Virus record (IMG/VR): IMGVR_UViG_3300021495_000002
Span: 1 to 64,000 of that record
Direction: 5' to 3' (one strand)
DNA from: a virus
Length of the DNA stretch: 64,000 bases
Below the pieces are notes generated by a model. That model ran no database searches. It was not told where the DNA came from and saw only the letters and a list, made by a program, of their open reading frames with translations. Within the stretch, counting starts at the first letter, position 1. Each line of letters starts with the position of its first letter. Position numbers and translations under genes: made by a program. Positions 18,350-46,370 of the stretch are shown here, piece after piece.

Positions 18350-18352
18350 TTT

Positions 18353-25069: not shown

Positions 25070-25313
25070 AAAACTCTAACCACTTGTCCACCCAATCTTT
25101 TTTCTTAGTTTCCTTTTTTGTTCTTCATTCTCTGACTGAGGTTTATTTTTCTTCATCTTGCATCACCAACTATTTTCAACTCTTTAATTATTTCTTTAAT
25201 TTCCTTTATTTCTTTCCACAAACTTTCTATCTCCTCGTCAATCATTTTTACAATTTCTCTTTCTGTCACTACTCTCCCTTCTTCGTATTCCTTTGCAATC
25301 TTTTCCAGTATTT

Positions 25314-25604: not shown

Positions 25605-25803
25605 TTACCACCACCGTCCCAGAGTCATGACATGTCCACAGATCGGCACTTTGGGTTTCTCGTCGAAGAGCAAATCTGTATCGTGTCGTGTCTATTATTG
25701 CACCAATAAAATTCCTTCTTTTTGTTATTTATCAATTCTGCGTCCATTCCACCTTCTCCTTTCAATCAAATCCCGCCACCAAAAGAGTTTTGGCGTTGCT
25801 CAT

Positions 25804-26333
25804 TTACTTCCATGATTGCTTTAGAAATTTATACCTTATTCGTTTTAGTTGTTTTGCACTCAGCTCTTGGACTGCGATTTGATTCTCAATAAGATATTTA
25901 GTAATCTTTTTATATATTTCAAGGTTTAAAGATTTTAATTTATCAATATCTCGTCTGGAAATGTGGAACTTAGCTTGTATTTCTTTCGTGTTCGGATTGA
26001 AAAAGGGATTATCGTCCATGATAATAGTTAGACTTCCTGCTATTTCATCTCTTAGGTCTTCAAGAATATCTCTATCAGGAAATAAATCCAGTAAGGCAGT
26101 GCAGAGATAAATACTACAAGGCAATCTTCTTCCCTCGTTCCTAAAACATGCGTTTCACCAAAAGAACATAATCCACAACAGTATCCTCTACATATCTCCT
26201 CACAATACTCGCGTATCCCCGAATCTATCATAAAGTCTTCGACTACTTCCAGTGCCTCTTTATACGTGTACTCGTCCTTCATATTTATCACCAATCTATA
26301 TATCCCTTTTATAATATATAAACATAAAACCAA
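25804..26333 (-). CDS. Cys-rich protein apparently split over two frames (frameshift, sequencing error, or two overlapping genes)
   Basis: ORF 26052-26333 reads sensibly to ...CCGLCSFGETHVLGTREEDC, then turns into hydrophobic junk. The -1 frame is open from ~26155 and continues PCSIYLCTALLDLFPDRD... to 25804. Confidence 0.35.
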
Positions 26334-26476
26334 TCTTTTATATATAAATGAATCTTAACATTTTGAGACTCTCGCCACTCCTCAATCTTATAATAATATA
26401 ATATATAAATATATAAAAATAAAGAGAGAAAAAGGAAGGGGACTAAACGTCCTATATTCAATCAATCAATCTAAGC

Positions 26477-26764
26477 TTATATGTAGGCTCTTAGGCTTGT
26501 GTCCGGTTCTACCTGATCCCAGTAGTCCGGATTAAGATATCCGAAGAAGTCAAACTCTGTGCCCCACTCTCTGCATGTCTTGCCGGCGTGTATTTTCCCG
26601 TTCTCATCTTCGATGGGTCTCAATCGTTTGTTGCTTCTGATCCTATAGACTTTACCTTGTGTATCTTTGACCAAAAAACTCTTTCCTTTAATCCCCAAAT
26701 ATAAGACCACATCGTTTACCTTTGTGTCTTTTAGAGTCTGTAGTAAGCAATACACGGTTATCAC
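26477..26764 (-). CDS. Hypothetical protein; first gene of the minus-strand arm
   Basis: 95-aa ORF with GGAGGTGA immediately upstream of the ATG on the minus strand. Confidence 0.55.
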   Translation of the reverse strand: MITVYCLLQTLKDTKVNDVVLYLGIKGKSFLVKDTQGKVYRIRSNKRLRPIEDENGKIHAGKTCREWGTEFDFFGYLNPDYWDQVEPDTSLRAYI

Positions 26765-27613
26765 CTCCTATTTATCCTCGATGGATTAGAGGAATATCAA
26801 TCTAAATTTGATCGGTGCACCCGTGAGGACTTCCATCCTCAAACGGATGCACCAATCTATTTAGGCAGTGGGGCAGGAGCAAAGGAGGGGCTATTAAAGA
26901 GAAGCGTAAATTTTTCATCCGCTTATGTTTGCATCAATCTAAAATGAATAGTAGAATCTCAACCTCTTTCCTCTTTTGCGTTCCCTTCTTCTCTCTATTA
27001 GAGAGAAGAATAAATAAACAAATAAAGGTATAAAGCATAAGATAAACAGAACAACATAATAGATTATAATCAAAGACATGTTAAACATTTTGATTCTCAC
27101 CTACCATATTCTTCATGTATGCAATTTTTATTCTCATGGGTATATTATTATATCCCCTTCATTGGATATTTTGTTATATCTCATCATTTTGTCTCTCATG
27201 TGATTTTTCCCTCACCCTATCCCACCACATTTTGAGTATGTGAGTGGTGAATTACAAAAACCCTAAATTTGTCACACACCGTAACACAAAGATACCGGTT
27301 GGTGTTAAGCTTTATGTTGTTGTGAAGGATTCCTGGATGTGTGTCACTTCTTCATAAAGATGGCTCAGGATAACACATGTTCATACACAATTGGTATGAA
27401 TTCACATCACATTTTTATGCCGATCAACATACTTCTTGATTGGCTGGTAACACGGGTTATGTTTGCCCCAGCTTGCCCTCTTACAAAATGCTAAAATGCA
27501 CACATGTGGACATGATATTTGAATTTTTCTTTAAGGGTTCATGAAGATTTTTTGTTATGAAAAATAGGGTTAAATAGGGGCTTAAACATAGGGTTAATTG
27601 GTGATAAAGAAAA
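26765..27613. promoter_or_regulatory. Noncoding divergence hub between the minus-strand and plus-strand arms (divergent promoters; possible origin)
   Basis: About 850 nt without a credible ORF. All genes to the left are minus, all to the right plus. Contains CAATCTA[AT] repeats (26798, 26853, 26943), a hairpin at 26821-26846 and a perfect palindrome at 26986-27010. Confidence 0.6.
26986..27010. repeat. Perfect 11-bp inverted repeat with a 3-nt spacer
   Basis: ttcttctctct-att-agagagaagaa, read directly from the sequence. Confidence 0.9.
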
Positions 27614-28582
27614 ATGAATAAAAAAACATCACCAAAGGAAAAACCGGTTAAGGAGAGTAGCGAATCCTTAACACATAAAGAGAAGAACGCTAAAGAAGAG
27701 ATGGAGAAGAAGGAAGAAATAAAGAAGGAGGAAAAAGAGGAAAAAGAGGAAACAAGAGATAGGTACGTCATACAATACAATAAGACAACAGAGGAAGACA
27801 ATTATGAAACATTGAGGAAAGAAGGAAAGGTATACGTAACAAGCAATAAAGATAAAGCACAAGAGATAGCGGAGAAGCTTCTAAGTAAACACGTGGATTT
27901 AACGATGGTAAGGATATGCAGAGTGTCCAACAATATCCTTATACCCGAAGTAGAATTAACGGGTAAGGATATTGTAATGAAAAACAAGGAAGTGTTGCCC
28001 AAAGAAATGCGAGGAGTAATTAGCGAGGACATGCTACAATACATGGATGACTCAGAAATATCTTCTATCCGCAATTTGATAGCTGAATACATGAGGAAGA
28101 AACAAGAGATAGAAACATTTAGTAGGCTTGCAGTGCAAAGATCAGCTTTTCGACGAGATAAAGAAATGGTGAAGAAGCTTGAGGAGATAAAACATAATTA
28201 TCAAGCTTCTAAACAGACGTACGAAGACGCGAAGAAGATATGGGAAGAAGCTAAAAAGGAAACAGAAGAGTTCATAGAAGAATGCGAAAAGAAGTTTCCA
28301 TCAATTGGTCGATGGCTCCGCGTGGAGATCACCGGCACGGGGAGGACAGTAAGAAGAACATCGGGAAGGACACGCACAACGGGGGGCAAAAGGGAGATAA
28401 TCCTAAAGTTCCTCCGGGAACATAAGGGGGAAAGATTCAAGGAAAGCGAGATAAGAAGGAAGCTTCAAGAGATAAACAAAGAATATTCATGGACTCAGCA
28501 GTCAACTTGGAATCCCCTTAAATCCTTGAGAGAAGAGGGGATAATCAGTCAAGACGATAAGGGAAGATATTATCTTCCCTAA
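27614..28582 (+). CDS. K/E-rich protein with a C-terminal winged-helix DNA-binding domain
   Basis: 322 aa. C terminus KREIILKFLREHKGERFKESEIRRKLQE...WNPLKSLREEGIISQDDKGRYYL has a MarR/wHTH-like pattern. First gene of the plus-strand arm. Confidence 0.55.
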   Translation: MNKKTSPKEKPVKESSESLTHKEKNAKEEMEKKEEIKKEEKEEKEETRDRYVIQYNKTTEEDNYETLRKEGKVYVTSNKDKAQEIAEKLLSKHVDLTMVRICRVSNNILIPEVELTGKDIVMKNKEVLPKEMRGVISEDMLQYMDDSEISSIRNLIAEYMRKKQEIETFSRLAVQRSAFRRDKEMVKKLEEIKHNYQASKQTYEDAKKIWEEAKKETEEFIEECEKKFPSIGRWLRVEITGTGRTVRRTSGRTRTTGGKREIILKFLREHKGERFKESEIRRKLQEINKEYSWTQQSTWNPLKSLREEGIISQDDKGRYYLP

Positions 28583-31666: not shown

Positions 31667-32160
31667 AGGATACGACCCCGATTCTTGTTAAGAGCACAAC
31701 AAAGCAGAAACTTTCGGAGGCAAAAGAGATCCTTCGAAAGACTTGGGATGACTTCCTTGTTTACCTTCTTGAGTTTTATATTTCCCACGCAGATGAGGAC
31801 GACAGGGAGTTAGACAAGGCTGATGTGATGCGCTATTGCATCTCTTCTCCTGACACGAGTTCACTCGAGTTCCATAGAGATCAGCTTACGAAGATTCTTA
31901 CCGATTTAGAACACACGTACGCAACAACCGGCGATCCAAAAGACAAAGCGACAATTGCTGAGAAGATTGCTCGTATTAATGCCTCTCTTAAGGACATTTC
32001 AAAAACTGATGAAAGTAGTCGAGTACTTGAAGAGATAGCACAAATAAAAAAGAACAGATTGAAAATTTTAAAGAATATAGCTCCAACAAAGACTGTAAAA
32101 CGAAATGAAGATAAAGAAGAGATATCGGAAACTGAGAGTGAACAAGAAGCAAGTAATTAA
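31663..32160 (+). CDS. Hypothetical protein; candidate small terminase / RHH-type DNA-binding protein
   Basis: 165 aa, directly upstream of TerL. N terminus ILVKSTTKQKLSEAKEIL looks like a ribbon-helix-helix strand-helix. The call rests on position only. Confidence 0.3.
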   Translation: MKDTTPILVKSTTKQKLSEAKEILRKTWDDFLVYLLEFYISHADEDDRELDKADVMRYCISSPDTSSLEFHRDQLTKILTDLEHTYATTGDPKDKATIAEKIARINASLKDISKTDESSRVLEEIAQIKKNRLKILKNIAPTKTVKRNEDKEEISETESEQEASN

Positions 32161-33730
32161 GGTCATTTGTGATTATTGTGGAAAGGAATACGAGGTCACT
32201 GAGCAAGTTTACTATGCTAAGATGCGACAGGGCTTTAGATACTTCTTCTGTTCGGAGCAATGTTTAGCCCGTGCTCGTGCAGAATACTTGTGGAACCGTA
32301 AAGCACCTGTCAATATTCCTGATGAACTTAAAGAAGAGCCTGAAGTTGAAGTATCTCTCATACCGGAGGACATGCAAGGCTTTTGTTACTATTGTCATCG
32401 ACGAATCCCAAAGTCAGCAATATTCTGTGAAGAACATGCAACTAAAGAACATCTTGCAATATTTGAAGCAACTCAGGAATTACCAGTTCACCCAAGAGGT
32501 TGGTGGTCCTACGAAATAATTAAGGATTGGCTTTCTGGCTACAAGAAGATTCTTTTAAAAGCTCCCTCTGGAACGGGTAAGAGCGTTCTTGAGGACATTA
32601 TGGCATATTTGAATTTGACACTCTTTGATAATTCCTTCACTCTCATAGGTTCAATTTCAATGCCAATAGCCGTGCAGCATATAGACAGAATCCGTGGATG
32701 GGTGGCTATGTCTCCCTTTAGAAACTTCATAGTGTATGACAGTAAAGAACAAATAAAACTCAAGAATGGTTCAAGGGTCTTAGCGATAGCGCAAAATGAA
32801 AAGACTCGAGGTGGTTACCATCCTGATTTGATTCTGTTGGATGAGCTTGCTCGTATACGACCTTCTGCCTATTATGGCTTGTTTTATCAGATGGGAAAAA
32901 CAAAGGGGGCAACTGAAATAGGAGTATCGACTCCATTCCTCAACTCAGGAGCCTTTCTCAAGCTTTGGCATTCAGGAACGTCCAGAAATTATTCAGTAAA
33001 GCTTGAAGATTGTTGGTTTATTACTGAAGAAATGATAAGGGATGCTCAAAAAGACATGTCCCCCTCCTTTTTTGATCAAGTATTTAAAGCTGAATTTGTA
33101 GCAACCTCTAATAGAGTGATTCCGGATGAGCAACTTCTCAACGCTATTACGGATACAAGATCGAAATATACAGGAGAAACAATAATGGGTCTCGACTTTG
33201 GACGTAAGCGAGATCATACAGCATTAGTAGTCCTTAACGATAAGGGTCATGTCATATACACCGAAATTTTGCCTCTCAAGACAACTTGGCGAGAACAATA
33301 TGCCATAATACGCGATAGAGCAAAAAAATTTAATCCCACCACGATATATGCGGATCAGACATCGATTGGTGATCCCATACTGGAAGAACTTTCGGACCTT
33401 CCGATTGAGCCTGTCCTAATGTCTAACGATAAATTAAAAAAGAAGATTATTGACAATTTGGTTTTGTGTTTTGCTTATAATTCGATTCACATACCTAAAG
33501 ATGAACAAAAGTTGATTGATCAGCTTTCAGCTTTTGTATATTTAGATGATAACTTAAGTAAATGTGGTCCCGAAGGAGGAGCACATGACGACCTCGTGGA
33601 CGCGTTGGCTCTCGCCTCCTTGGGACTCGAACGACATATTGATGAGGAAGAAACTACGGATATTTGGGGAGCGATTGGTGGAGAACGGTCGCTTGATATG
33701 GAGGAAAGTCCTTGGACAATTGTATGGTGA
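32105..33730 (+). CDS. terL: Terminase large subunit with an N-terminal zinc-ribbon extension
   Basis: Walker A LLKAPSGTGKSVL, Walker B LILLDELARI. Nuclease-domain acidic blocks GLDFGRKRDHTALVV, IYADQTSIGD and AHDDLVDALALA. N-terminal CDYC...FFCSEQC and CYYC...FCEEH. Confidence 0.85.
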   Translation: MKIKKRYRKLRVNKKQVIKVICDYCGKEYEVTEQVYYAKMRQGFRYFFCSEQCLARARAEYLWNRKAPVNIPDELKEEPEVEVSLIPEDMQGFCYYCHRRIPKSAIFCEEHATKEHLAIFEATQELPVHPRGWWSYEIIKDWLSGYKKILLKAPSGTGKSVLEDIMAYLNLTLFDNSFTLIGSISMPIAVQHIDRIRGWVAMSPFRNFIVYDSKEQIKLKNGSRVLAIAQNEKTRGGYHPDLILLDELARIRPSAYYGLFYQMGKTKGATEIGVSTPFLNSGAFLKLWHSGTSRNYSVKLEDCWFITEEMIRDAQKDMSPSFFDQVFKAEFVATSNRVIPDEQLLNAITDTRSKYTGETIMGLDFGRKRDHTALVVLNDKGHVIYTEILPLKTTWREQYAIIRDRAKKFNPTTIYADQTSIGDPILEELSDLPIEPVLMSNDKLKKKIIDNLVLCFAYNSIHIPKDEQKLIDQLSAFVYLDDNLSKCGPEGGAHDDLVDALALASLGLERHIDEEETTDIWGAIGGERSLDMEESPWTIVW

Positions 33731-34724
33731 TCGGGATACAGATCCTTGGAAAGTAGGTGCTCCGAGTGGTGAAGACGAGAGTGATGAGTCTTCCAGAACT
33801 TTTAAGACTACACACGCGTTAGAGGTGGGTGGACCATCTCAAGAAGACTGGGAATTGTATTTGACAAGTCCTCCAGCATTTGCAGCAGTTGAAGCCGTCA
33901 CCTTTGCTGTTCTCTCTGCTGGTTTTGAAATTCATGGTGAGAGTGAGCAAATTAGGGAAAGATACACACGGCGCTTTGATAAAGTATTTCCAAAGCTTTA
34001 TTCTGTTATGCGAGACGCTTTAGTGTTTGGCGACAGTTATTCGAGAATCCTCTTCGGGAGGGATAACCATTTTACTGATATTGAAGTTTTATTTCCGCTC
34101 AATGTAGTAACTCAGAATGGTGATTACTTTGTACGAGAAGGTGGAAAGCTTGTTCGTGTAAAGAACATTTGGCACTTTCAAGCTATGGCTCGTACAGACT
34201 CATCTTTTGGCATATCTATGATAGGTGTAGCAAGACAACCTCTTAAATGGAAGAAGGAAATTGACGAGAGTGTCCACGAGGGTATTATCAGACACGGTTT
34301 TGCGAAATATCATATTCAGTGCCTTCCCGATAGACGAGGACTTTATCCTGATGAAAATAAGCTTAAGGAATTGGAGAGACAGTTTAGAAAAATTCACGTG
34401 GGTCATGAGTTTGTTTCGACAGACAAGGTTAAAATTGATCCAATTGACACATCTGGATTTCCAGCTCTCTTAGACTATCTGCAATATTACACAAGTCTTG
34501 CTGCGACCGGCTTAATGGTTCCGGCTGAGACACTTGGGCAGGGCATAGCAACTTCACAGTATGCAACTGCTAAGGTAAGGATGGAATTCTTCCTCAAGAA
34601 TACTATTCCTTATTTCCAGAGAGTCCTTGAATGTTCCATTAATGATAACCTTATGGGCGAAAGGGCTGAGGGAGCTATATTTAAACTGAATGAACCAAAA
34701 GAGATCTCATATAAGACAGGATGA
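33564..34724 (+). CDS. Putative portal protein (start uncertain)
   Basis: Position immediately after TerL. 386-aa ORF overlapping TerL by up to 167 nt. Alternative starts are ATG 33642 or the TTG/GTG at ~33672-33677, which sit behind GGGGAG. Confidence 0.5.
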   Translation: MVPKEEHMTTSWTRWLSPPWDSNDILMRKKLRIFGERLVENGRLIWRKVLGQLYGDRDTDPWKVGAPSGEDESDESSRTFKTTHALEVGGPSQEDWELYLTSPPAFAAVEAVTFAVLSAGFEIHGESEQIRERYTRRFDKVFPKLYSVMRDALVFGDSYSRILFGRDNHFTDIEVLFPLNVVTQNGDYFVREGGKLVRVKNIWHFQAMARTDSSFGISMIGVARQPLKWKKEIDESVHEGIIRHGFAKYHIQCLPDRRGLYPDENKLKELERQFRKIHVGHEFVSTDKVKIDPIDTSGFPALLDYLQYYTSLAATGLMVPAETLGQGIATSQYATAKVRMEFFLKNTIPYFQRVLECSINDNLMGERAEGAIFKLNEPKEISYKTG

Positions 34725-35182: not shown

Positions 35183-36037
35183 ATGGGTGAATTAGCTGAT
35201 AGGTTAAAAGAATACGTCGCTAAGGTGCAGACCCACGAACTCAGTACGTCTGATGACATACGACGACTGACACAGAAAGCCTATTATAATGCTGTCATAG
35301 CTGGAGCTAAACGAAGGGAATTCATGAGGAAGATATTACCTGTTGTTAAAACAAGTTCGCATAGAGTGAGAGTATTCACGTCTAACGCAAACGGATACGC
35401 TTCAAAAGGAGCTTATAAAGGAGAACCTCCTATTTTCCATCCTAAATACACAAGCATTGATGCTGTAACCGAAAAAGCTTGGACTTTGCCCCTTGCTCCT
35501 AAAGAGTTAGTTGAAGACGCAGAATTCGATTTAATTGAAAACGAGGTTTCTCTCGCTGGCATGAGATTAGAGAATACTTTGAATCAGGATGCGATTTCTG
35601 CATTAATAGACAATGCAGAACATTCTCAAGTGTGTGACGGAACTTCTCCGGTTGTGGCAATTGGAAACGCTTGTGTGGACATTGCAGATTCTCAATTCAC
35701 ACCAACTCACATGATTGCTACTCCTCAGTTTTATAATGTGGCACTTACTACGTTTCAAACTCCACTCATGTATAATAAAAAACAGGGAGGTCTGCTTGAC
35801 ATGAGTCTGCTTGCCGTTATTTCAAATGGCGACGAGAATTGGGCGTGGGGGGATACCGGAGATGTTGGAGCGGTAATCTTGGATGCTGAAATGGCAGGAT
35901 TAATTCTCATGAAGGAAGATATAACGGTTAAGAAGTATTCTGATCCTCTTAATGATTTACGTGGTGCAATAGTAGAAATGAAATACAAAGTTGTAGTAAC
36001 AAAACCCAAGGCTATTTGTATAATTAAGCATGATTAG
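35183..36037 (+). CDS. HK97-fold major-capsid-protein paralog 1 (284 aa)
   Basis: Alignable by eye along its length with the 52541-53527 protein: KELVEDAEFDLIE/EELIEEEEFDVIE, FTPTHMIATPQ/FEPDTIVMTPD, YSDPLNDLRG/FEDPLNDLRN. Canonical TerL-portal-protease-MCP position. Confidence 0.65.
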   Translation: MGELADRLKEYVAKVQTHELSTSDDIRRLTQKAYYNAVIAGAKRREFMRKILPVVKTSSHRVRVFTSNANGYASKGAYKGEPPIFHPKYTSIDAVTEKAWTLPLAPKELVEDAEFDLIENEVSLAGMRLENTLNQDAISALIDNAEHSQVCDGTSPVVAIGNACVDIADSQFTPTHMIATPQFYNVALTTFQTPLMYNKKQGGLLDMSLLAVISNGDENWAWGDTGDVGAVILDAEMAGLILMKEDITVKKYSDPLNDLRGAIVEMKYKVVVTKPKAICIIKHD

Positions 36038-36725: not shown

Positions 36726-37721
36726 ATGAAAACTCCTCTTTCCTCTATTTTTAATTTTGGAGCAATTCCCTCTCCTTGGGATAAAAGGGACGTTATATAC
36801 GCGGCTCTTACTTCAAAAGAGAAGCCGGAGGCATTTAGTCTTAAGGAATACCAAGGACCGGTAGTAGACCAGGGTTCTCGACAGATATGCGTTCCTTGTG
36901 CGTTGTGTGCAATTGCAGAGTCAAAACAATTTTACAATACTAATTTGTCTGAATGTTACATTTACAAGCGTCGTTCCCATAAGGGAGATGGCATGGTGCT
37001 GAGGAACGCTCTCAAAATTATGCAAAAGGAAGGCACTTGTCAAGAAATGTGTTTTCCGTTGTCTACGTGTCAAGAACGATGCAGTGAAAGCTCAATTAAA
37101 AAGAACGCCCTATCTTATAGGATAGGAGAATACCATAGAGTATTCAATGATATTACCGGTACGATGTATATTCATAAGCTACCAGTATTTGCAGCCGTTC
37201 CTGTGTATGATAATTGGTCCTATGATGCTCGTATACCAATGCCCTCTGGTGAATTCTTAGGTTTTCACGCTATTACGATTGTAGGATATAACCTCACAGA
37301 GAAATATTATGAATTCAAAAATTCCTGGGGAACAGAATGGGGGAATGGGGGATACGGGGTGTTGCCTTTAAACTATCCGATAGCTGAAGCATGGATAGTT
37401 GAGCCGAGACTTGGGAATGATTACGATGATTTGCTTCCTGATGACATAACAATTAAAAATACAATATGTGGCATGTCCATATTTGGGCTTGGTATCGAAC
37501 TCGAGATTACTGTTCCTTGGGACTGTATTGTAAGACCCAACTTCGGAATATTCCGATTTCCACGTATGCTTCATAAAGGCACGAATTCAGTGATGTTTAG
37601 ATTTCCATTTAAGAAAGGTTCACAGCCACTAAGTTTAACCTTTAAGCATAAGAATTCTTATATTAGAATGTCTGCTACTCTTTCTAATACCATTCAATTG
37701 AGTGAGTGGGAAAGAATTTGA
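36726..37721 (+). CDS. Papain-family (C1) cysteine peptidase with a C-terminal beta-rich extension
   Basis: DQGSRQICVPCALCA (Gln/Cys block), GFHAITIVGYN (His block) and KNSWGTEWGNGGYG (Asn-Ser-Trp block), in papain order. Confidence 0.8.
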   Translation: MKTPLSSIFNFGAIPSPWDKRDVIYAALTSKEKPEAFSLKEYQGPVVDQGSRQICVPCALCAIAESKQFYNTNLSECYIYKRRSHKGDGMVLRNALKIMQKEGTCQEMCFPLSTCQERCSESSIKKNALSYRIGEYHRVFNDITGTMYIHKLPVFAAVPVYDNWSYDARIPMPSGEFLGFHAITIVGYNLTEKYYEFKNSWGTEWGNGGYGVLPLNYPIAEAWIVEPRLGNDYDDLLPDDITIKNTICGMSIFGLGIELEITVPWDCIVRPNFGIFRFPRMLHKGTNSVMFRFPFKKGSQPLSLTFKHKNSYIRMSATLSNTIQLSEWERI

Positions 37722-37727: not shown

Positions 37728-40142
37728 ATGAGCTTACGAGTAACATTTCTCGGAGTAAATGCAGAAGCAAAGGGACATTCCTGTATATTAGTTGAGTCAT
37801 CCAAAGCGAGAATCCTCTTAGAGCCCACTCAGCGAGTTAGGGACGTTGATGCTGTTATAATCACGGATATAGACAGAGATGAATATAGCGAATGGAAATA
37901 TTATGCAGACCAAGGAATTCCTATATATTCGGTAGCAGCAATAAAGAGATGGGCAGAAGATGATGAACTTCGAGAGTCCATTCAAGTGATAAGCAACAAG
38001 TTCTCAATTAAGGGTCTCCACATGAATTGGCTAAAAGCTAACGTTGCTCCTCACGAACCAGCAGGCGGAGTTAGAATTCCAAGTTATGATGTAGATATAG
38101 TGCCTGAACTTCCAGCTTATATTCCTCAAGCTTTAATAAAGGCATTTGGATTGCCACCGTCCAATATTATAGTTGGCATTGGTTCTTATAAGAAATCAGA
38201 CCATAAAATATCGTTTGAGGATTTTCTTCTTCAGCTTGAGAAGACTCGAAGTGGTAAGGAAAAAGGTCTTTTATCTATTACCCTTACAAACTTCAGGAAG
38301 GATTTAAAAGAACATAAAAGTGAAGTTCTCAGAAGACTTAAAGAACGATGGGATATTCCCATCTTTTGGGCAGAAAAGGGCATGACGCTGGAATTTGCAA
38401 TAGATGGAGAAGTGATAAGAACAGATACCCTTCCTAAAGAAGACGAAAAGCTTCACTTCAAAGAATTCCTTTCCAAAGGAGTTGATTATGACATAAAGCA
38501 CGTCAAGACAAGATGGAAAGAGTGTATAGCAGATTTGCGATATTTGGCTAACAACGCCGTACCTCGCTTGAAAGCAGGAAAGAAGTGGGGTAAGTGGACT
38601 CTTGATGCGTGCTATAAATATTTTGCCGCTTTGATAGATGCTCTTCGTAGTGTGTATTTTGCACTCGTTCCCCCTACTCAACCTGAGCTATACAAAATAG
38701 AACATCCTAATAAAGATCCTAAAGAAGCACTTAAGACTTCTTTCTGGCAGACATACTTGAAGGCTAAGAAATACATGAAGTCCAAACCTCCCAAAGATGA
38801 GGAGGAATTAAAAGAGTGGAATAAGAAGCGAGCAAAAATAATAAGTGCATCTGAGGAAACGAAGAGCCTTAAAGTCGGATACCTTTCCAAGGCTAAACCA
38901 TATTTACGATTCTTCCTTCCTACTATTCATGAGGATATTGCGAGTGCTGGATGGGACGAAAAGAAGCTCCTTATCGATGTTAAAGCTGATGGTCTCAGAA
39001 TTACTCTTTGGAAGTCAGGCGGTAAAGGGTACGTGTTTGTGGATCCAGAAGAACTCAAACACAAGTCCCCATTAATAAACAAATATATTCCTCAGATAGT
39101 GAAAGAGATTGAAGAACGCTTCCCTGATAACACAGCTCTTGATGGGGAACTTTATGCAGCAAAAGGCAATGAAGCTTTACATAGAACCGTCATAAATGGA
39201 ATTATAAATACTAAGCTTCCTCCCGAAAGATTCATACCTTATGCGTACGCATTTGTATTCGATGTCCTTATTTATAAAGGGAATGATGTCCGAGATAAAC
39301 CTCTCGAAGAAAGGTTAAAACTGCTTCAGACTTTTAAGTCTACCGCACACATCAAAATAGAAAGAGTAAGCAAAGTTGCAATACCAAGCTATTCTGGATA
39401 CATAGTAGACGGGAATAACAAGAGTGCGATAGATAAAGCCATTCATTTGATAAAAACTTCAAAACACAGTCTCCATAAGGGATTGCAAGAGGGCGTCATG
39501 ATTAAAACTTTAGATCATTTCTATGAAGTTCCTACAAATAAAGGGGCAGCCAAATGTAAGTTTTGGCACGAAGTTGACACTGTGGTACTGGATAAGAAGT
39601 TGGTAAAAGGACAAACCGATGTGTGGAATTATTATCTGGGTATCGAAATACCAGCCGGATATGCTAAGATGATGCTTGATGACACTCAGGCGTATAAACG
39701 TGTTCGATGTTTGTATAATGGTCATCTTTATAAGAAGAAAGAGTGTCAAGATTATTTAGACAGACGAGGTACTCGATTCTTTATGGAATACGGAAAGTCG
39801 GATAACACAAAAATTAAGTGTGATGTTGGAGACGTTCTTAGAGTGTCCTCAGAAGAAGTCCTCTATAATGCAAATGAAACTCATCCAGAATACCCGTATT
39901 ATACAGGATACATAAATAGGGCGATGGAACCAGTACCAGAAAGAAAGACTTCTGATAATTTAGTCGTGTTGCATCGTCTTGCTTTACTTGAACCTCAACG
40001 GATACCCTTGGAAGTCTTAGCGAAATGGAAAGAAAGTATGCCTTCAGAGATAAAGAAGTATTGTGAATATATTAGGTCTTTACCCACTTCAAGACTAATT
40101 CAATTTTATAATGCACTGAAGAAGGTTCAAAATGAAGAGTGA
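37728..40142 (+). CDS. lig: ATP-dependent DNA ligase with a ~400-aa N-terminal extension
   Basis: Adenylation motif I DVKADGLRITLW (Lys at ~38982), motif III ALDGELYA, IIIa AFVFDVLIY, IV EGVMIKT and V KCKFWHEVDTVVL. Confidence 0.85.
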   Translation: MSLRVTFLGVNAEAKGHSCILVESSKARILLEPTQRVRDVDAVIITDIDRDEYSEWKYYADQGIPIYSVAAIKRWAEDDELRESIQVISNKFSIKGLHMNWLKANVAPHEPAGGVRIPSYDVDIVPELPAYIPQALIKAFGLPPSNIIVGIGSYKKSDHKISFEDFLLQLEKTRSGKEKGLLSITLTNFRKDLKEHKSEVLRRLKERWDIPIFWAEKGMTLEFAIDGEVIRTDTLPKEDEKLHFKEFLSKGVDYDIKHVKTRWKECIADLRYLANNAVPRLKAGKKWGKWTLDACYKYFAALIDALRSVYFALVPPTQPELYKIEHPNKDPKEALKTSFWQTYLKAKKYMKSKPPKDEEELKEWNKKRAKIISASEETKSLKVGYLSKAKPYLRFFLPTIHEDIASAGWDEKKLLIDVKADGLRITLWKSGGKGYVFVDPEELKHKSPLINKYIPQIVKEIEERFPDNTALDGELYAAKGNEALHRTVINGIINTKLPPERFIPYAYAFVFDVLIYKGNDVRDKPLEERLKLLQTFKSTAHIKIERVSKVAIPSYSGYIVDGNNKSAIDKAIHLIKTSKHSLHKGLQEGVMIKTLDHFYEVPTNKGAAKCKFWHEVDTVVLDKKLVKGQTDVWNYYLGIEIPAGYAKMMLDDTQAYKRVRCLYNGHLYKKKECQDYLDRRGTRFFMEYGKSDNTKIKCDVGDVLRVSSEEVLYNANETHPEYPYYTGYINRAMEPVPERKTSDNLVVLHRLALLEPQRIPLEVLAKWKESMPSEIKKYCEYIRSLPTSRLIQFYNALKKVQNEE

Positions 40143-42177
40143 ACTCATAGACACTCAGAATGTGAATACTCTACTCGAATTGGTAGAGTCGGAACTCAAT
40201 TATAGACACGCGAAAGGATTGCACATTCCAAATAGGGGAATGTATTTACCCTCGCTACACGCTAAGCTTATCCATGACGGTCACAAGACAGTAATTCTCA
40301 AGGATAGGAAATTTAAAATAGCGGGCGTTCCATTCCTTTACTGTGACAATAAATATGCTTATGGTGTATTAGAACTTAAAGAACCAAAAGAAATTAAGAC
40401 AGAAGGGCAATTTAAGGCTCTCCAGAAATATCATAGAGTAACCAAGAAAGAGTTTGAAAATTGGAATTGGTCATTTCCCCTCTACGCTTATTATATTAAA
40501 GAGGTTCGCAACTTTAGGAAACCTGTAAAGATTAACCTTCCTCAAGGCGTGCAAAACTTTATTAAGAATCCAATTCAATATTTAGAAGATAGTGAATATC
40601 CATTTACTGGTAAGCATGAATTATCTCTTCCTCTACAAATAAACTGTCCCAACTGTGGAAGGTGGATATACGTTCCACATTCTCCAATTCCGTCTGATTG
40701 TCCTTATTGTGGTTATCAATTGAAAGAAGTGGAAGAAGAAAAATCACGGATGGTTCCTCTTCCGAAAGAAGAATACTCTCGAATAGTTAAGGATTATCCT
40801 CTTAAACCTTTGCCTAAGAAATATTATAAAGATCAGAGAGGAGGAGTAGCTTGGTGCTTTGCTTCTCCTCGAACTAAAGTCCTCACGGAAGGTGGATGGA
40901 AGCCTTGGAACAAAATTTATCCGGGTGAGAGAGTCTTAACACATAAGGGCAGGTTCATGCGAGTCACTCGAAAGGACGTGTTTGAAGGCATTTATGACTG
41001 GATTAAGGTTCATCTTCAGTTTGATAACATAAAGGACCTCAAGTACGATATTCGAGTGACTGAGAATCATCCCTTCCTTACAACAGACGGTTGGAAAGAA
41101 GCTAAGGATTTAAAGGTTGGTGATAAGATTATTTCAAAAACACCTAAGCGTTGTCTCAAGTGTCGTGCTCCGATTCCACTTTCATGGAATGCAAAGACGG
41201 ATTTTATGTTTTGTAGTGATGAATGTGCACGAAACTATGAGTGGACAGAAGAGAGTTTGCACACTGAATACATTGATAAACAAATTTATGATAATTCTCT
41301 TGCTGACGTCACAGTCACAGTTGTTAAGATAGAACAGATTAAAATCCCAAAAGACTCTACTGTATGGACTCAAACTCACGCTTGTTCCTTAGAGGTAGAA
41401 GAAGATCACTCGTATATGACTCCTTTAGGATTCTCTCACAATTCACAATGGCACATAAGGGGCATAAAACCGGAAGACAAAGAAGCATACGATAAAGGTG
41501 AAATATCCTTCGAGGAGATGATTTTGCATCATAGTCTTCATCAAGACTTGAGATGGAAATTAAATGGCGTTTCAGTTCTTCCGCAGTGCACAATTACTGA
41601 GAGTGACATGAAGTCTTATGTGAGAGGAATGCTTGGACAACTTAATCCAGAACAGAAGGGTCCTGCCAACGTCCAAAAGGTTAAGGTAATTCCCAAGGTT
41701 GAGATCGCCAAGCCTACAATGCCAAAGTCCAAAATAAAGGAATTCCTTATAGACAAGGAAGGAGCTAAGCTTATTAATAAGATTATAATACATAAGACCT
41801 CTTACTGGATCAGTCCTGGAGAGATTGGGAGTTTGCCATACACTTGGGCTTACATGGGAACTATATGGACGGGAAAGGTGGCAACGGGGGTTGAGAGAGG
41901 AGATTTTCATGAGCTCTTCTTTTATCCCGATAAAGATCTTCCGGAACCAAATAGAAAATTCTTCGATGGACGATTCATATTAAGAGCCTTCAGAGGCGAA
42001 GCAGCACGAGGTGGCAAGACGTGGTGGTTGTGGAAATCTACAAAAAATCCTTATCCACAAAACCCTTGGTGTTATTGTGACCAAGGTGAACACGAAGTTC
42101 TTCCTCTTGATAAGATAAAGCATTGGGGACATGAAGATTATCCTGAATGGAAGACAAGAAAGGATGATTGTGAATAA
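40132..42177 (+). CDS. ASCH-like + zinc ribbon + intein-interrupted LigD-type 3'-phosphoesterase-like protein
   Basis: N terminus IHDGHKTVILKDRKF (ASCH-like). CPNCGRW...CPYCGY ribbon. Spliced extein GGVAW/SQWHIRG...HHSLHQDLRWKLNGV and GDFHELFF...FDGRFILRAFRG...KTWWLWKS resemble the H..H.D.R and C-terminal blocks of the LigD phosphoesterase domain. Confidence 0.45.
   Translation: MKSELIDTQNVNTLLELVESELNYRHAKGLHIPNRGMYLPSLHAKLIHDGHKTVILKDRKFKIAGVPFLYCDNKYAYGVLELKEPKEIKTEGQFKALQKYHRVTKKEFENWNWSFPLYAYYIKEVRNFRKPVKINLPQGVQNFIKNPIQYLEDSEYPFTGKHELSLPLQINCPNCGRWIYVPHSPIPSDCPYCGYQLKEVEEEKSRMVPLPKEEYSRIVKDYPLKPLPKKYYKDQRGGVAWCFASPRTKVLTEGGWKPWNKIYPGERVLTHKGRFMRVTRKDVFEGIYDWIKVHLQFDNIKDLKYDIRVTENHPFLTTDGWKEAKDLKVGDKIISKTPKRCLKCRAPIPLSWNAKTDFMFCSDECARNYEWTEESLHTEYIDKQIYDNSLADVTVTVVKIEQIKIPKDSTVWTQTHACSLEVEEDHSYMTPLGFSHNSQWHIRGIKPEDKEAYDKGEISFEEMILHHSLHQDLRWKLNGVSVLPQCTITESDMKSYVRGMLGQLNPEQKGPANVQKVKVIPKVEIAKPTMPKSKIKEFLIDKEGAKLINKIIIHKTSYWISPGEIGSLPYTWAYMGTIWTGKVATGVERGDFHELFFYPDKDLPEPNRKFFDGRFILRAFRGEAARGGKTWWLWKSTKNPYPQNPWCYCDQGEHEVLPLDKIKHWGHEDYPEWKTRKDDCE
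40855..41442 (+). mobile_element. Mini-intein (196 aa), no homing endonuclease, with an inserted CxxC...FCSxxC zinc ribbon
   Basis: Block A CFASPRTKVLTEGG (Cys1), block B VTENHPFLT (TxxH), blocks F/G SLEVEEDHSYMTPLGFSHN followed by the +1 Ser. Confidence 0.75.
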
Positions 42178-42206: not shown

Positions 42207-45200
42207 ATGGGTTGGTTATCTGGTTATTCTTATCGGAAAAAAGTAACAATTTCTGGCTCGAGTGGAGCTGGAGAGAATTATCAAGTTAAGTTATTAATTG
42301 GCTCGTCATCAGGAGGAGACTTTCATTTAGAAGGACATTGTGAAAATTTTCCTAACGACATTCGTTTTACGGACGATGATGGCACGACTCTCTTGGATTA
42401 CTGGATAGAAGATTCAACTCAAGACCCGATTACGGTATGGGTAAAAGTTAAAGATAATTTGGACAACAATGTGGATATTTATGTTTACTATGGCAATCCC
42501 TCTGCCAGTTCTGCGAGTGATGGGAACAGTGTTTTTCTTGATTTCATAGACAAAGAGGACGCTTCAAGTTTCACTTGTGATAGTAACCATTATGCAACAA
42601 CGTACAACGACTATCTAAGGATTTACAGCGATGCTGGTTCTGGGGAAAGATGCTATAAAGATATAGACATTCCAAAACCATTCGTATATGAAATGGTTTG
42701 GTATACTCATAACACAGATATAACAGACCAAGTCGGAATAATTGTTTCAACAGATTCAGGTGGTGGCGTTTCAAATCGTTACTTTTACACATTCCAGCCT
42801 CGCTCCCCCTCTCAAAATAAAGTACAGTACTATACAGGCTCTTTTAATGATCTCTATTCCTCTTTCAGTATGGGGACGACTTACAGATTCAAGATAATTG
42901 TCGATGATAATGTTGATTTCTATCTTTATGACGTTGATGGAAACCAACTTGCTTCGGCTTTAAACAAACCTTACGCTTATGGCTCTCCATCAGGTAACGC
43001 CAAAACTTTATGGATAGGCGATGCTACTGGGGGAACAGATATAAAAGGAGATATAAGAATAAAGTTTGCTTTCTTTCGCAAATACGCCTCTCCAGAGCCT
43101 TCTTTTGGTAGTGTTGGAAGTGAAACCTCATGTTTTTCTTGTACTGATGTGGTTGGATTGTTAGATACCTCCTCTCGGAGTGGACCTTTAGTAGGAAGTT
43201 GTGTCGATGCTTTGGGTGCTATTTCTTCCTCTTCTCTTTTCATGGAAGCCACTTGGCTTCCTGGTTTTACTTATAGAAAACGTCTTGTTATCTCAGGCTC
43301 AAATGGAGCAGGCACTGGATATCAAATTAAACTCAAGATAGGCTCCTCTTCTGGAGGGGATTTTCATTTGAACGGTCACTGTGACGACTTTCCCAATGAT
43401 ATACGTTTCACGAAAGACGACGGTCTTACTCTTCTCAAGTATTGGATAGAAGATCCTGATCAAGACCCAGTTACAGTGTGGGTGAAAATTGAAGACAATT
43501 TGGATGAGAACGTAGATATTTACTGTTATTACGGCAGTTCAATTGCAGATACTCTCAGTAATGGTGAAGCCGTCTTTGATTTCTTTGATGATTTTGATTA
43601 CGGGAATATCTCCAGTTATCTCGTTCATAATGGTACAAAGGACTGGGCTGTTGGAGGTATCGAGTTACCTAATGGTGATATTATTGCTGCTTGGGAGTAT
43701 AGTCCAACTGGAGTTGAGTGTTCTAACTCAAACTACATTTTAGCGAGCAGATCAACTGATGGTGGAAAAACATGGGGAAGTAGCTACACACTTCAAGACA
43801 CTCCCAATAGAAGAGACGTAGAACCTCAATTTTTAGTTCTGGGTAATACAGTGTATTTTTTCTATGGAATAGTCGATGAAAACGATTCAAATAGAGCTGG
43901 TGCAATATACTATAAGACTTCAACTGACAATGGTAATACATGGTCTGAAGCACATTTGATAGAAAGTTCCAGTCATCTTATAGCGACTATTTCTAATCCT
44001 ATTAAATTAGAAAATGGCGACTACGCAGGTCGTATTATTCTTCCCGCTCAAGAATGGGATGGAAGTCAGTGGCATTCGTATGTATATTACTCGGACGATA
44101 ATTGTAGCAGTTGGAATCGTAGTAATGTTGTTCAGAGTGATAAGAATCTCTGTGAACCAACGGTTGTTGAGCTTTCTGATGGCTCTCTATATATGCTGAT
44201 GCGTAATAGTGATTCACCAGGTGGAGAATGGCAATATGAGTCAAAATCAACAGACGGAGGCGTAACTTGGAGTAGTGCAACTTCATCAAGCATTCAGTCA
44301 CCGCGTGCACAGTCCAAACTTTTGAAGTTATCAAATGGACATATTATACTGTTATGGAACAATGTGTCTTCTTCTTCCAATACTCCAAGAGTTCCTCTGT
44401 CAGTTGCAGTCTCCACAGATGACTGCAATACATGGTCTGATGCGGTAGATATTAGAAGTGGTAGTGGGCAATATTCAAATATGGGCTTACTATTAAAGTC
44501 CAATGGCGAAATTGTTGCTTTATATACAGACGAAATTAACTTTGATATCTATGCTGCAATTTTTACTGAAGAAGTTTTCAATGAGCAGTTTTCAGATAAA
44601 TGGGATACGATTGGAAGTCCGAGTATTTCGTTTGAGAATTCAGTTATGTCCATGACATGCGATGATGAAGAATACATCAAGAGCAAATCATTCACAATTT
44701 CTCCTCCAGCGATATTAGAAGTAAAGTCAAAGGACAAAGATAGTGGAACAGAAAATTATCCTGGAACATACGGTTTTGGTTACTATCATGGTACAACTTA
44801 CGATACAAATGGTGTACAAAGAGGTGTTCATACTACTGAACAATATGATCTTGTAGTTTGTGATAATTCAGGACGAGATTATACTACTGATGGATTTCCT
44901 CGTAATACGAACTTTGCAACCTACAAAATAGTATGGACAAGTTCGATTTGTCACATCTATGAAAACGGTGTACAGAAAGATGATGGTGATGTCACGACCC
45001 ACATACCAACAGTGAGTTTACCGGTTGTAATAGGTAGAACATATTATTATAATCATCCAAACGCTTTTGATGTTGACTGGGTTTTTGTTAGGAAATACGC
45101 CGATTCGGAGCCATCATTCAGTAGTGCTCAAGCAGAGGAGGGACCTGTATTCACTTGTGGAGACGTACTTTCAAATTCAAGCATCTTCAATTCTCTTCTT

Positions 45201-46370
45201 TCAATAGTCTCACGTTCTCAGGACGCACTGGAATTGATAGATTCAGATATTTCTTTGACCATTCTTCTACTCAATGCAATTGACTCAATAGATGTCAGTG
45301 ATGGTTGTACTCTTTCTCTCTCGTTTACATCATCTTGTTTGGACGTATTGCATGCCATTGATAGTACCTCTTATCCATTGCCAAATGTGGTTAGTTGCTT
45401 AGATAGCTTAGGAACTCAAGACTCCATTTCGTCATTCCTCTCGATGTTATGCCAAAGTAAGGACAATATTGGAGGAGCGGATGGTGAAACTTCTCAACTT
45501 TCAGTCGAGCGAGCATTACTCGATATTCTCGCTTTCCAAGACACTTCCTCCTATCTTGCGGGTATTATTGCCTCCGCTTCTGACATTCTTAACATGCAAG
45601 ATTTAAATAGTATTCGCTTAACGTTTTCTTGTTCAAGTATAGACATTATTAAGAGTGTAGATAGTGGAGGAGTTAATGTTACGTTCCATTTGGATGGAAA
45701 TGACATACTCGAAGGAGCAGATTTTGTTTCTGGTAACCTTCAAGTCCTTCTTGATTCCCTGGCAGTCTTTGAGAGTACAGATCAAAGTGCCTCTTCGCTC
45801 TTAGGTTTTATTCTAAGATCAGCCTCTGATGTACTTGATATGTATGATTTGAACACAGCCACGCTTCAGATATCCTCTTCTTCGATAGACATCTTCAGGA
45901 CAGAAGATAATTCCTCTATTAATATTACGCTTCATTTAAATAGTGCAGATGTCTTTAAGAATTCTGATTCAGCAATTCTCAGTTTACAAGCTCTTCTTAG
46001 TGCATTAGAAACACTTAAGGTTAGTGATAGTGATACAGCTTCTCTGTTTACTGAGATACTAGCTTCCGCTTCCGATTTGCTTTCCACTTCTGACTACAAT
46101 GGAGTTCGCTTAGAGTTCCTTAATTCGTCTGTTGACGTAATTAAATCTGAAGATAGGGCTACTCCATCCATCACTTTACACTTGGACAGTTCAGATATTC
46201 TTCATGGATTAGATTCTGTTACAACTAAACTTGAAGCCATTTTATGTGCTATGTCTGAATTTAAAAACACCGATCGATCTTCAACACGCAGACAGATTAT
46301 TCACATTTCTCCTGTTAAGATATTTAAGGCTCAACAAAAAATCCTCGTTTTTAAAGCAGAGAACATTTAA
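42207..46370 (+). CDS. Giant tail-fibre/receptor-binding protein: DUF2341 x2, BNR sialidase-like beta-propeller, Ser/Asp-rich C-terminal repeats
   Basis: Two copies of YRK.VTISGS.GAG..YQ.KL.IGSSSGGDFHL.GHC..FPNDIRFT.DDG.TLL.YWIED (aa 8-100 and 355-445). Asp-boxes SRSTDGGKTW, TSTDNGNTW, SKSTDGGVTW, VSTDDCNTW. FFRKYASPEPSF / FVRKYADSEPSF close each DUF2341 unit. Confidence 0.8.
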   Translation: MGWLSGYSYRKKVTISGSSGAGENYQVKLLIGSSSGGDFHLEGHCENFPNDIRFTDDDGTTLLDYWIEDSTQDPITVWVKVKDNLDNNVDIYVYYGNPSASSASDGNSVFLDFIDKEDASSFTCDSNHYATTYNDYLRIYSDAGSGERCYKDIDIPKPFVYEMVWYTHNTDITDQVGIIVSTDSGGGVSNRYFYTFQPRSPSQNKVQYYTGSFNDLYSSFSMGTTYRFKIIVDDNVDFYLYDVDGNQLASALNKPYAYGSPSGNAKTLWIGDATGGTDIKGDIRIKFAFFRKYASPEPSFGSVGSETSCFSCTDVVGLLDTSSRSGPLVGSCVDALGAISSSSLFMEATWLPGFTYRKRLVISGSNGAGTGYQIKLKIGSSSGGDFHLNGHCDDFPNDIRFTKDDGLTLLKYWIEDPDQDPVTVWVKIEDNLDENVDIYCYYGSSIADTLSNGEAVFDFFDDFDYGNISSYLVHNGTKDWAVGGIELPNGDIIAAWEYSPTGVECSNSNYILASRSTDGGKTWGSSYTLQDTPNRRDVEPQFLVLGNTVYFFYGIVDENDSNRAGAIYYKTSTDNGNTWSEAHLIESSSHLIATISNPIKLENGDYAGRIILPAQEWDGSQWHSYVYYSDDNCSSWNRSNVVQSDKNLCEPTVVELSDGSLYMLMRNSDSPGGEWQYESKSTDGGVTWSSATSSSIQSPRAQSKLLKLSNGHIILLWNNVSSSSNTPRVPLSVAVSTDDCNTWSDAVDIRSGSGQYSNMGLLLKSNGEIVALYTDEINFDIYAAIFTEEVFNEQFSDKWDTIGSPSISFENSVMSMTCDDEEYIKSKSFTISPPAILEVKSKDKDSGTENYPGTYGFGYYHGTTYDTNGVQRGVHTTEQYDLVVCDNSGRDYTTDGFPRNTNFATYKIVWTSSICHIYENGVQKDDGDVTTHIPTVSLPVVIGRTYYYNHPNAFDVDWVFVRKYADSEPSFSSAQAEEGPVFTCGDVLSNSSIFNSLLSIVSRSQDALELIDSDISLTILLLNAIDSIDVSDGCTLSLSFTSSCLDVLHAIDSTSYPLPNVVSCLDSLGTQDSISSFLSMLCQSKDNIGGADGETSQLSVERALLDILAFQDTSSYLAGIIASASDILNMQDLNSIRLTFSCSSIDIIKSVDSGGVNVTFHLDGNDILEGADFVSGNLQVLLDSLAVFESTDQSASSLLGFILRSASDVLDMYDLNTATLQISSSSIDIFRTEDNSSINITLHLNSADVFKNSDSAILSLQALLSALETLKVSDSDTASLFTEILASASDLLSTSDYNGVRLEFLNSSVDVIKSEDRATPSITLHLDSSDILHGLDSVTTKLEAILCAMSEFKNTDRSSTRRQIIHISPVKIFKAQQKILVFKAENI
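45573..46292 (+). repeat. Three tandem ~246-nt (82-aa) coding repeats at the fibre C terminus
   Basis: Units start SASDILNMQDLNSIRLTFSCSSIDIIKS (45573), SASDVLDMYDLNTATLQISSSSIDIFRT (45819) and SASDLLSTSDYNGVRLEFLNSSVDVIKS (46065). Each continues ...TFHLDGNDIL / TLHLNSADVF / TLHLDSSDIL. Confidence 0.85.

Follow-up and report, generated by a model that had tools for sequence, protein, structure and literature searches.

A mini-intein within a predicted LigD phosphoesterase-like protein encoded beside an ATP-dependent DNA ligase in the head module of a tailed virus

We analyzed a 64,000-nucleotide stretch of DNA (hereafter, the window), which corresponds to positions 1 to 64,000 of the IMG/VR record IMGVR_UViG_3300021495_000002 and represents a tailed-virus genome; the label of P0004, a homologue of the protein studied here with 98% identity, gives a Micrarchaeota metagenome-assembled genome as its source. 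Two adjacent plus-strand genes of the window encode a protein with a metallo-beta-lactamase (MBL)-like N-terminal domain and an ATP-dependent DNA ligase, followed by a precursor protein in which a mini-intein splits a C-terminal domain resembling the 3'-phosphoesterase (PE) of LigD (Pfam PF13298, LigD_N). The start of the second open reading frame (ORF) overlaps the ligase stop, as a first-pass annotation made from the sequence had reported, with 11 nt shared between the two genes. N-terminal to the PE-like domain, the precursor contains an ASCH-like domain and a zinc ribbon. We refer to the family of PE-like C-terminal domains that includes the window protein as the X family and number its residues by their position within the domain; PE residue numbers are those of the Pseudomonas aeruginosa enzyme. 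The coordinates of all features are collected in the table below.

The first-pass annotation had placed a class-1 mini-intein in the precursor, and its boundaries proved exact at both the protein and the nucleotide level. All motifs expected of this class are present, including Cys1, the TxxH signature in VTENHPFL and a terminal SHN followed by Ser. In Pfam searches, the PT-HINT model scored 28.3 bits with the full protein and 31.9 bits with the excised intein (gathering score 27.7), and Intein_splicing returned 25-27 bits, which is significant, yet under its gathering score of 35.8. Around block B, weak PDB sequence matches were obtained to a bacterial intein-like (BIL) domain, to the DnaB intein and to the PI-MtuI intein. 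The GC content of the intein DNA (0.40) is close to that of the two exteins (0.37 and 0.41), and thus a compositional trace of recent invasion is not seen.

We removed residues 242-437 in silico and searched 5.8 billion proteins with the resulting 485-residue spliced extein, which yielded 22 homologues. Four of them (P0005, P0006, P0007 and P0010; 407-490 residues) are insert-free over 98% of the spliced extein, and in a MAFFT alignment the spliced window sequence crosses the junction gap-free with respect to such intein-free homologues. The predicted joining of ...AW to SQWHIRG... is thus seamless, and the same junction, ...AW/SQ[WM]HIRG, is found in intein-free P0013 and P0016. Inteins at the very same site occur in P0001-4 (98-67% identical), P0021 and P0069, all of which have retained Cys1, the T-x-x-H motif and Asn as the last residue, with Ser or Cys at position +1. 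Cys1, T-x-x-H and SHN are likewise kept in the inteins of P0002, P0021 and P0011, which share 67, 49 and 39% identity with the window intein, so that the Hint blocks, including the terminal HN, hold up across homologues. Since intein-free alleles align without a gap and same-site inteins retain the catalytic residues, residues 242-437 almost certainly represent a genuine intein, and one that, judged by its residues, is very probably able to splice. The homologue P0008 (483 residues) comprises the N-extein and the first ~90 intein residues, breaking off after block B, beyond which the sequence is unrelated; disruption, a frameshift or a chimeric origin is the probable explanation.

The window intein resembles well-known class-1 mini-inteins with the Hint fold, such as Ssp DnaB and the Mtu RecA derivatives, in its Cys1, block B TxxH, block F and His-Asn + Ser+1, in being inserted beside an active-site motif of a nucleic-acid enzyme and in having lost a functional homing endonuclease. 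It differs from them in that it keeps a zinc finger and the stub of a DUF559/Vsr-like endonuclease rather than of a LAGLIDADG or HNH enzyme. This remnant can be traced by comparison with the 333-residue intein of P0021, which occupies the same site and shares 49% identity across 195 common columns. The P0021 intein contains ~137 additional residues that match Pfam DUF559 (23.6 bits, gathering score 20.6), a Vsr-like PD-(D/E)xK endonuclease, preceded by an FCS-type zinc finger (zf-FCS_1, E 0.028). In the window, at 41152-41300, the zinc finger of the intein is followed by a stub, HTEYIDKQIYD, that aligns to HTYWADAAIPD of P0021, and the remainder of the endonuclease is gone; consistently, no Pfam match to an endonuclease domain was found in the 196-residue intein. 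By this alignment, the window intein is a deletion derivative of an intein with a DUF559/Vsr-like endonuclease, from which the zinc finger has been kept. The P0021 and P0011 inteins both combine a DUF559/Vsr-like endonuclease with an FCS-type zinc finger instead of LAGLIDADG or HNH domains, and this type may represent an under-described lineage of intein homing endonucleases.

An exhaustive X-family profile search of 1.84 billion representatives retrieved 101 family members. By split hidden Markov model (HMM) matches and inspection of the junctions, we located inteins at seven different sites among the ~100 cluster representatives (50% identity), with LAGLIDADG domains in most of the inteins other than those described above. 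All seven sites adjoin near-invariant residues of the X family. The window intein is located one residue ahead of Gln36 and three residues ahead of His38, in agreement with the earlier proposal that it sits just before the first predicted catalytic His; another insertion falls within the His-x-Asp metal motif itself. Because the sites all lie beside the most conserved residues, they provide an independent mark of these motifs as functionally critical. A comparable clustering of independent intein sites at conserved motifs is seen in intein-rich phage and archaeal replication or packaging proteins (terminase, portal, ribonucleotide reductase, helicases and archaeal DNA ligase), whereas the X family is an uncharacterised end-healing-type domain with as many as seven sites in ~100 representatives.

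We next consider the relationship of the interrupted domain to the LigD phosphoesterases. An AlphaFold2 (AF2) model of the spliced C-terminal domain (predicted local distance difference test score (pLDDT) 74, predicted template modeling score (pTM) 0.72) was compared with the PDB using Foldseek, and the first-ranked match was 3P43, an archaeal LigD 3'-PE (E 2e-3, probability 1.00, target-normalised TM-score 0.72), with the next match reaching a TM-score of only 0.23. A search of BFVD returned one significant match, the unnamed viral protein A0A516LT18. At the sequence level, a PE HMM made from 120 PF13298 proteins scored the most distant members, which the X profile had retrieved independently, at 12-22 bits, whereas the highest score among 580 shuffled control sequences was 6.3 bits. 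A bridge profile made from 19 sequences connects the two families: in hhalign, it matches PE with 97.4% probability (E 1.4e-11) over 132 columns, the whole domain, and the X family with 99.9% probability (E 2.2e-33). The bridging sequences also define the register of the motifs. In P0112, the segment RFVLQAHVRGKSVHYDFRYEF aligns both to 'fvvQrH..lHyDfRle' of PE and to 'gHSlHqDlRlkl' at X positions 63-74, and P0110 and P0103 place the X motifs in the same PE register. Consequently, Gln36 and His38 correspond to PE Gln40 and His42, and His67, Asp69 and Arg71 to His48, Asp50 and Arg52. The P. aeruginosa sequence used for this numbering matches 3N9B at 99%; in the Shuman-laboratory structures, His42, His48 and Asp50 are metal ligands, acting together with Arg52 and Gln40. 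The five X residues are Gln439, His441, His470, Asp472 and Arg474 of the precursor and are conserved at 97-98% in 59 diverse family members. The Q-x-H ... L-H-x-D-x-R core recognized in the first-pass annotation was hence mapped correctly, as was the C terminus, where the X-family strands GVxR..HE.FFY, GRFI.R and WW.WK match the last strands of PE.

Several results weigh against this assignment. The LigD_N profile, put forward with the first-pass annotation as a check on the spliced extein, gave no match to either the full protein or the spliced extein even at E<=1, and NCBIfam, PHROGs and an hmmsearch of PDB sequences with the family profile provided no direct match to the extein. Direct hhalign comparison of the X family with PE was insignificant (P 0.01-0.03), aligning 10 columns with a 4-sequence and 31 columns with a 120-sequence PE alignment. 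Among the top 50 Foldseek matches, only one of the four distinct PDB PE chain sequences was present, and a model of the full-length extein (pLDDT 63) recovered the ASCH fold with no PE match. The X domain is about twice as large as PE (~270 versus ~130-150 residues), with about 130 additional residues. Finally, equivalents of the phosphate-contacting PE His84 and of Tyr88 and Glu82 could not be placed in the X family: bridge proteins read K-x-x-[HQ]-P-x-x-W at the His84/Tyr88 position and the segment of the window subfamily did not align, leaving the conserved Lys119 and Asn110/Lys113 as candidates only. One further register, obtained with hhalign at -mact 0.05 and placing PE beta-1 on X 82-90, was rejected since it is contradicted by the bridging sequences and by the AF2 topology.

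Despite the failed direct searches, four independent lines, namely the fold match, the intermediate sequences, the profile-profile linkage and the motif register, place the domain in the PE superfamily, and we regard homology as very likely. Its size, its inserts and the missing His84/Tyr88 equivalents led us to file the X family as a divergent branch of the superfamily rather than as a member of PF13298. Compared with the LigD PE structures (3N9B/3N9D from P. aeruginosa, archaeal 3P43 and 3P4H, and 5DMP from Methanocella), it shares the beta-barrel fold, homologous C-terminal strands, an ATP-dependent DNA ligase as partner and, on its first two strands, Gln-x-His and His-x-Asp-x-Arg motifs that keep the PE register. 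It differs by a ~23-residue helical hairpin between beta-1 and beta-2 and other inserts, by an N-terminal PLPxxYY helix, by a conserved Cys/Asp-containing C-terminal tail, and by being viral, intein-bearing and encoded in a head-gene module with no Ku or Pol partner.

The N-terminal region of the extein is predicted to adopt an ASCH fold. In the full-extein AF2 model, the pLDDT is 65-87 over residues 35-135, and Foldseek matched this segment to 2dp9 (E 2.3e-5, TM-score 0.75, target) and to ZmASCH (5guq/5y6b, about 1e-4), with a probability of 1.00 for 5guq, 5y6b, 5gus and 2kku; AF2351 and TRIP4 were matched as well. The ASCH profile PF04266 gave no match at E<=1 to the full protein or to the spliced extein, so that the domain proposed earlier holds at the level of the fold and not of the profile. 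The model resembles known ASCH domains (ZmASCH 5GUQ, TTHA0113 2DP9, TRIP4), but the GxKxxExR-type motif reads G-x-K-x-x-[IV]-L-K-x-R in the window family, with the Glu replaced, and a zinc ribbon and a PE-like domain follow in the same chain. The zinc ribbon, also proposed before, shows a CxxC-x14-CxxC pattern with weak Pfam support (E 0.004-0.1); it is found only in part of the family and is absent from P0007 and P0009-11.

We then analyzed the partner of the PE-like protein. The adenylation domain of the ligase (residues 410-604) matches Pfam DNA_ligase_A_M (1.3e-13) and several NCBIfam ligase models, with Lys419 in the KxDG motif. The N-terminal domain of the same ORF (~230 residues; 37728-38900) is homologous to P0022 (E 4e-17), and its homologues P0031, P0089 and P0096 match Lactamase_B_2 and Lactamase_B_3; in the window protein, the HxHxDH metal motif is degenerate (ITDIDRDEY). 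In the related loci L001 and L003, the ligase/PE pair is found at the same position. In L003, MBL-like domain, ligase and ASCH form one 937-residue protein followed by a separate PE-like ORF, P0022 joins the MBL-like and ASCH domains, and P0031, P0089 and P0096 combine MBL, ligase and PE-like domains in a single chain. The order MBL-like, ligase, ASCH, PE is thus constant in related viruses, distributed over one, two or three polypeptides. The constant order, the fusions and the adjacency suggest a combined end-processing and sealing function, and by strong guilt-by-association the four domains would form one such unit, akin to LigD. The 1258-residue P0102, in which a nucleotidyltransferase, an ATP-dependent ligase, a PE-like domain and a uracil-DNA glycosylase (UDG) are joined, supports a role of the PE-like domain in DNA repair, and P0054 adds a Dam methylase to the PE-like architecture.

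The ligase/PE pair is embedded in the late structural region, as had been noted earlier, and more precisely in the head module, between a papain-family peptidase and a fibre gene. In other phages, fusions to a head-maturation protease were unexpectedly found: P0080 (L004 4057-7122) combines ligase, PE-like domain and head-maturation protease, and P0079 (L005 8001-11063), P0085 and P0081 combine the PE-like domain with a protease, the fused proteases being of the S78 or DUF2213 type. In these fusions the protease is C-terminal, and the loci take the place of the protease gene between portal/MuF and putative capsid genes, which suggests incorporation of the fused enzymes into proheads. The window genes are not fused to a protease, which counts against extending this to the window, where an association with the virion would follow by analogy only.

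Table. Features of the window (nucleotide positions unless stated as residues, aa) and intein insertion sites of the X family
Feature	Position	Strand	Basis or content
Precursor ORF, 681 aa + stop	40132..42177	+	ATG start; ASCH-like domain, zinc ribbon, PE-like domain split by intein
Class-1 mini-intein, 196 aa, aa 242-437 (Cys242...His436-Asn437)	40855..41442	+	motifs, Pfam, homologous inteins
Intein block A	starts 40855	+	Cys242 in W/CFASPRTKVLT
Intein block B	41056-41079	+	V309-TENH-PFL (T310, H313)
Zinc finger CxxC...CxxxC within intein, aa 341-365	41152..41226	+	alignment with 333-aa intein of P0021
Intein block F	41380-41421	+	ACSLEVEEDHSYMT, aa 417-430, Asp-His intact
Intein block G	41422-41442	+	PLGFSHN437, then Ser438 (+1)
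N-extein part of PE-like domain, aa 208-241	40753..40854	+	helix, PLPxxYY motif, beta-1 start ...GGVAW
C-extein, rest of PE-like barrel and conserved C-terminal tail	41443..42174	+	motifs, alignment, model
C-extein motif Ser438(+1)-Q439-W-H441	aa 438-441	+	sequence
C-extein motif H470-x-D472-x-R474	41530-41553	+	sequence
C-extein motif NVQK	aa 513-516	+	sequence
C-extein motif PGEIG	aa 562-566	+	sequence
C-extein R593 and HE 597-598, within ERGDFHELFFY	aa 588-598	+	sequence
C-extein GRFILRAF, within DGRFILRAF	aa 612-620	+	sequence
C-extein TWWLWK	aa 630-635	+	sequence
C-extein conserved tail NPWC..D.G...EDYPEW...C		+	sequence
Predicted ASCH-fold N-terminal domain, about aa 35-135	40234..40536	+	AF2 model and Foldseek
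Zinc ribbon CPNCG-x14-CPYCG (CxxC-x14-CxxC), aa 172-194	40645..40713	+	pattern; weak Pfam
Partner gene, 804 aa: MBL-like N-domain and ATP-dependent DNA ligase	37728..40142	+	Pfam, NCBIfam, KxDG
Intein site W34/S35	X numbering		window, P0001-4, P0021, P0069
Intein site Q36/C37	X numbering		P0011
Intein site H67/C68, within H-x-D metal motif	X numbering		P0056
Intein site about L115/C116, after NVQK	X numbering		P0023
Intein site G163/S or T164	X numbering		P0009, P0019, P0045, P0049
Intein site R186/S187	X numbering		P0073
Intein site Y243/C244	X numbering		P0020, P0062
Glycosyltransferases	before TerL	+	Pfam/PHROGs scan
TerL with N-terminal TRASH domain	32105-33730	+	Pfam/PHROGs scan
Portal	33564-34724	+	Pfam/PHROGs scan
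Capsid-like protein	35183-36037	+	Pfam/PHROGs scan
Papain-family (C1) peptidase	36726..37721	+	Pfam Peptidase_C1 5.8e-13; PHROG peptidase 1.9e-19
BNR/DUF2341 fibre	42207-46370	+	Pfam/PHROGs scan
Tape measure	56692-62166	+	Pfam/PHROGs scan
Two DNA methyltransferases	1319-3170	-	
PhoU_div/DUF47 protein	4947-5690	-	
ERCC4/XPF-type nuclease	5590-6267	-	
RadA/KaiC-like ATPase	6649-7413	-	
AbiEi-like regulator	14107-14718	-	
MoxR-like AAA ATPase with VWA/DUF2201 partner	16832-19874	-	
GATase_4-like protein	21885-22772	-	

Other features of the head module and its surroundings were recorded alongside. The papain-family peptidase directly upstream of the ligase, a cysteine peptidase encoded right behind the capsid-region genes, may serve as head-maturation protease, for which it would be an unusual candidate in a tailed virus. 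TerL contains a TRASH/YHS-type zinc domain at its N terminus, as is characteristic of archaea. As listed, the ORFs of TerL and portal share 167 nt, and the GTG start of the portal has thus probably been called too early. The fibre-like protein downstream of the precursor (1387 residues) contains two DUF2341 domains and a BNR/sialidase beta-propeller, and its C-terminal region consists of repeated segments of ~60-70 residues (…SASDILNMQDLN…SIDI…). A replication and accessory module on the minus strand spans positions 1-24300. At ~24000-28000, the coding strand and the GC skew change sign, the minimum of the cumulative GC skew falls at 26-28 kb and few long ORFs are found; divergent promoters or a replication origin might be located here.

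Taken together, our analysis is probably best explained by a splicing mini-intein residing in an ASCH/zinc-ribbon/PE-like end-healing enzyme that is paired with the upstream ligase. Given the complete canonical residue set, the intein would remove itself from the 681-residue precursor after translation, starting with an N-S acyl shift at Cys242 and transesterification to Ser438; Asn437 would then cyclise and an O-N shift would follow, so that ...GGVAW is joined to SQWHIRG... in the mature 485-residue protein. As the intein is inserted one residue before the Gln-x-His strand, the unspliced precursor would be unable to form the barrel, and this endonuclease-less passenger must presumably splice for its host protein to work. 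By homology, the mature protein would combine a nucleic-acid-binding domain of the ASCH fold with a zinc ribbon and a much enlarged, divergent PE barrel, with a predicted metal/phosphate site formed by the five conserved residues described above. Family function and the fusions suggest that the enzyme may strip 3'-phosphate or 3'-ribonucleotide blocks to leave a 3'-OH, and that the healed 3' ends may then be sealed by the ligase encoded directly upstream; we consider this specific 3'-end-healing role slightly more likely than not. Its location in the head-morphogenesis module and the prohead protease fusions seen elsewhere raise the possibility that the unit serves the viral genome during packaging or entry and is not part of Ku-dependent nonhomologous end joining (NHEJ). 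More speculatively, and by analogy with the fused forms, the MBL-like/ligase and ASCH/PE-like proteins could be capsid-internal cargo, loaded into proheads, that heals and seals ends or nicks of the viral DNA at entry, with the intein acting as a post-translational gate on the phosphoesterase, a scenario that we consider rather doubtful.

We weighed other explanations for the locus. The module could repair RNA, for example tRNA cut by host anticodon nucleases, with the PE-like domain removing 2',3'-cyclic or 3'-phosphates and the ASCH domain binding RNA. Association with RNA is common for ASCH domains and our fold matches include ZmASCH, the homologue P0096 shows a weak match to the Pfam model RNA_ligase, and the LigD PE reportedly acts, in work from the Shuman laboratory, on ribonucleotide-terminated 3' ends. 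We nevertheless regard RNA repair as unlikely: the ligase best matches DNA_ligase_A_M and the ATP-dependent DNA ligase models of NCBIfam, the fusion partners UDG and Dam methylase are DNA enzymes, and a 5'-kinase domain is not seen.

A second possibility, which the first-pass annotation had raised by recalling the NHEJ toolkit, is that ligase and PE belong to a Ku-type system for double-strand break repair together with an archaeo-eukaryotic primase (AEP)-type polymerase. The combination of ligase and PE indeed resembles LigD, and genes for a RadA/KaiC-like ATPase and an ERCC4 nuclease are also present in the window. When 30 of the window ORFs, covering part of the small ones, were scanned with Pfam and PHROGs, no Ku, no AEP primase-polymerase and no LigD-Pol domain was detected. 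The scans agree with the annotation that no Ku-like gene is visible and fail to recover the AEP primase-polymerase that it had placed elsewhere in the window. An NHEJ role is thus not supported; instead, the pair is conserved within the TerL-portal-capsid-fibre module of relatives, a setting of capsid morphogenesis and not a repair operon, and is fused to prohead proteases in other phages, making this explanation highly improbable.

It is just as improbable that the C-terminal domain is an unrelated beta-barrel, such as a tunnel of the CYTH/TTM type or a structural domain associated with the capsid, in which the QxH/HxDxR likeness is convergent or accidental. The lack of a direct Pfam or hhalign match, the CYTH/TTM barrels 2een, 5a67 and 6yp4 among the weak Foldseek matches and the fusions to head proteases would fit such a view, but the CYTH matches reach a probability of <=0.21 and a TM-score of <=0.28 only, the bridge profile connects the X family to PE across the entire PE domain at high probability, and the PE HMM scores lie far above the shuffled controls. 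In addition, conservation within the X family is highest at the PE catalytic residues, and the domain is repeatedly fused to ligase, UDG and nucleotidyltransferase. Lastly, we give very little credence to a decayed or BIL-like Hint insert that has lost splicing and left behind a pseudogene or a permanently interrupted protein, since the deleted homing endonuclease, the Intein_splicing score below gathering and the disruption of P0008 past block B are outweighed by the intact Cys1, TxxH, block F Asp-His, terminal His-Asn and Ser+1, all conserved at 39-67% identity, by an ORF that is intact on both flanks and whose exteins share 89-98% identity with the exteins of relatives, pointing to selection for the spliced product, and by the fact that mini-inteins without an endonuclease normally splice.

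An intein within a domain of the PE superfamily is a combination of known kinds of elements. Our literature search found no paper joining LigD, phosphoesterase and intein and, for inteins with DUF559, a single paper that by title and abstract compares cyanobacterial genomes; a survey of intein hosts (PMC4760082) does not have a phosphoesterase or PE-like domain among its listed hosts, and a tblastn search of 50,697 GenBank phage records with the PE-like domain returned no homologue. The enlarged viral PE branch, its density of inteins and its placement in and fusion to head modules appear to be undescribed. Our findings extend the LigD PE superfamily to a large viral branch that is invisible to Pfam, and add a new host protein for inteins, in which seven dense insertion sites independently flag the catalytic motifs. 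They also document a lineage of inteins that have a DUF559/Vsr-like endonuclease at their core, and its decay to a mini-intein. The four-domain unit of MBL-like domain, ligase, ASCH and PE is conserved within the head modules of tailed viruses, and physical fusions to prohead proteases exist in some phages, raising the idea that some viruses may package DNA-repair enzymes in their capsid. If the capsid-cargo scenario were true, the unit would represent a virion-packaged DNA end-repair kit that is delivered together with the genome.

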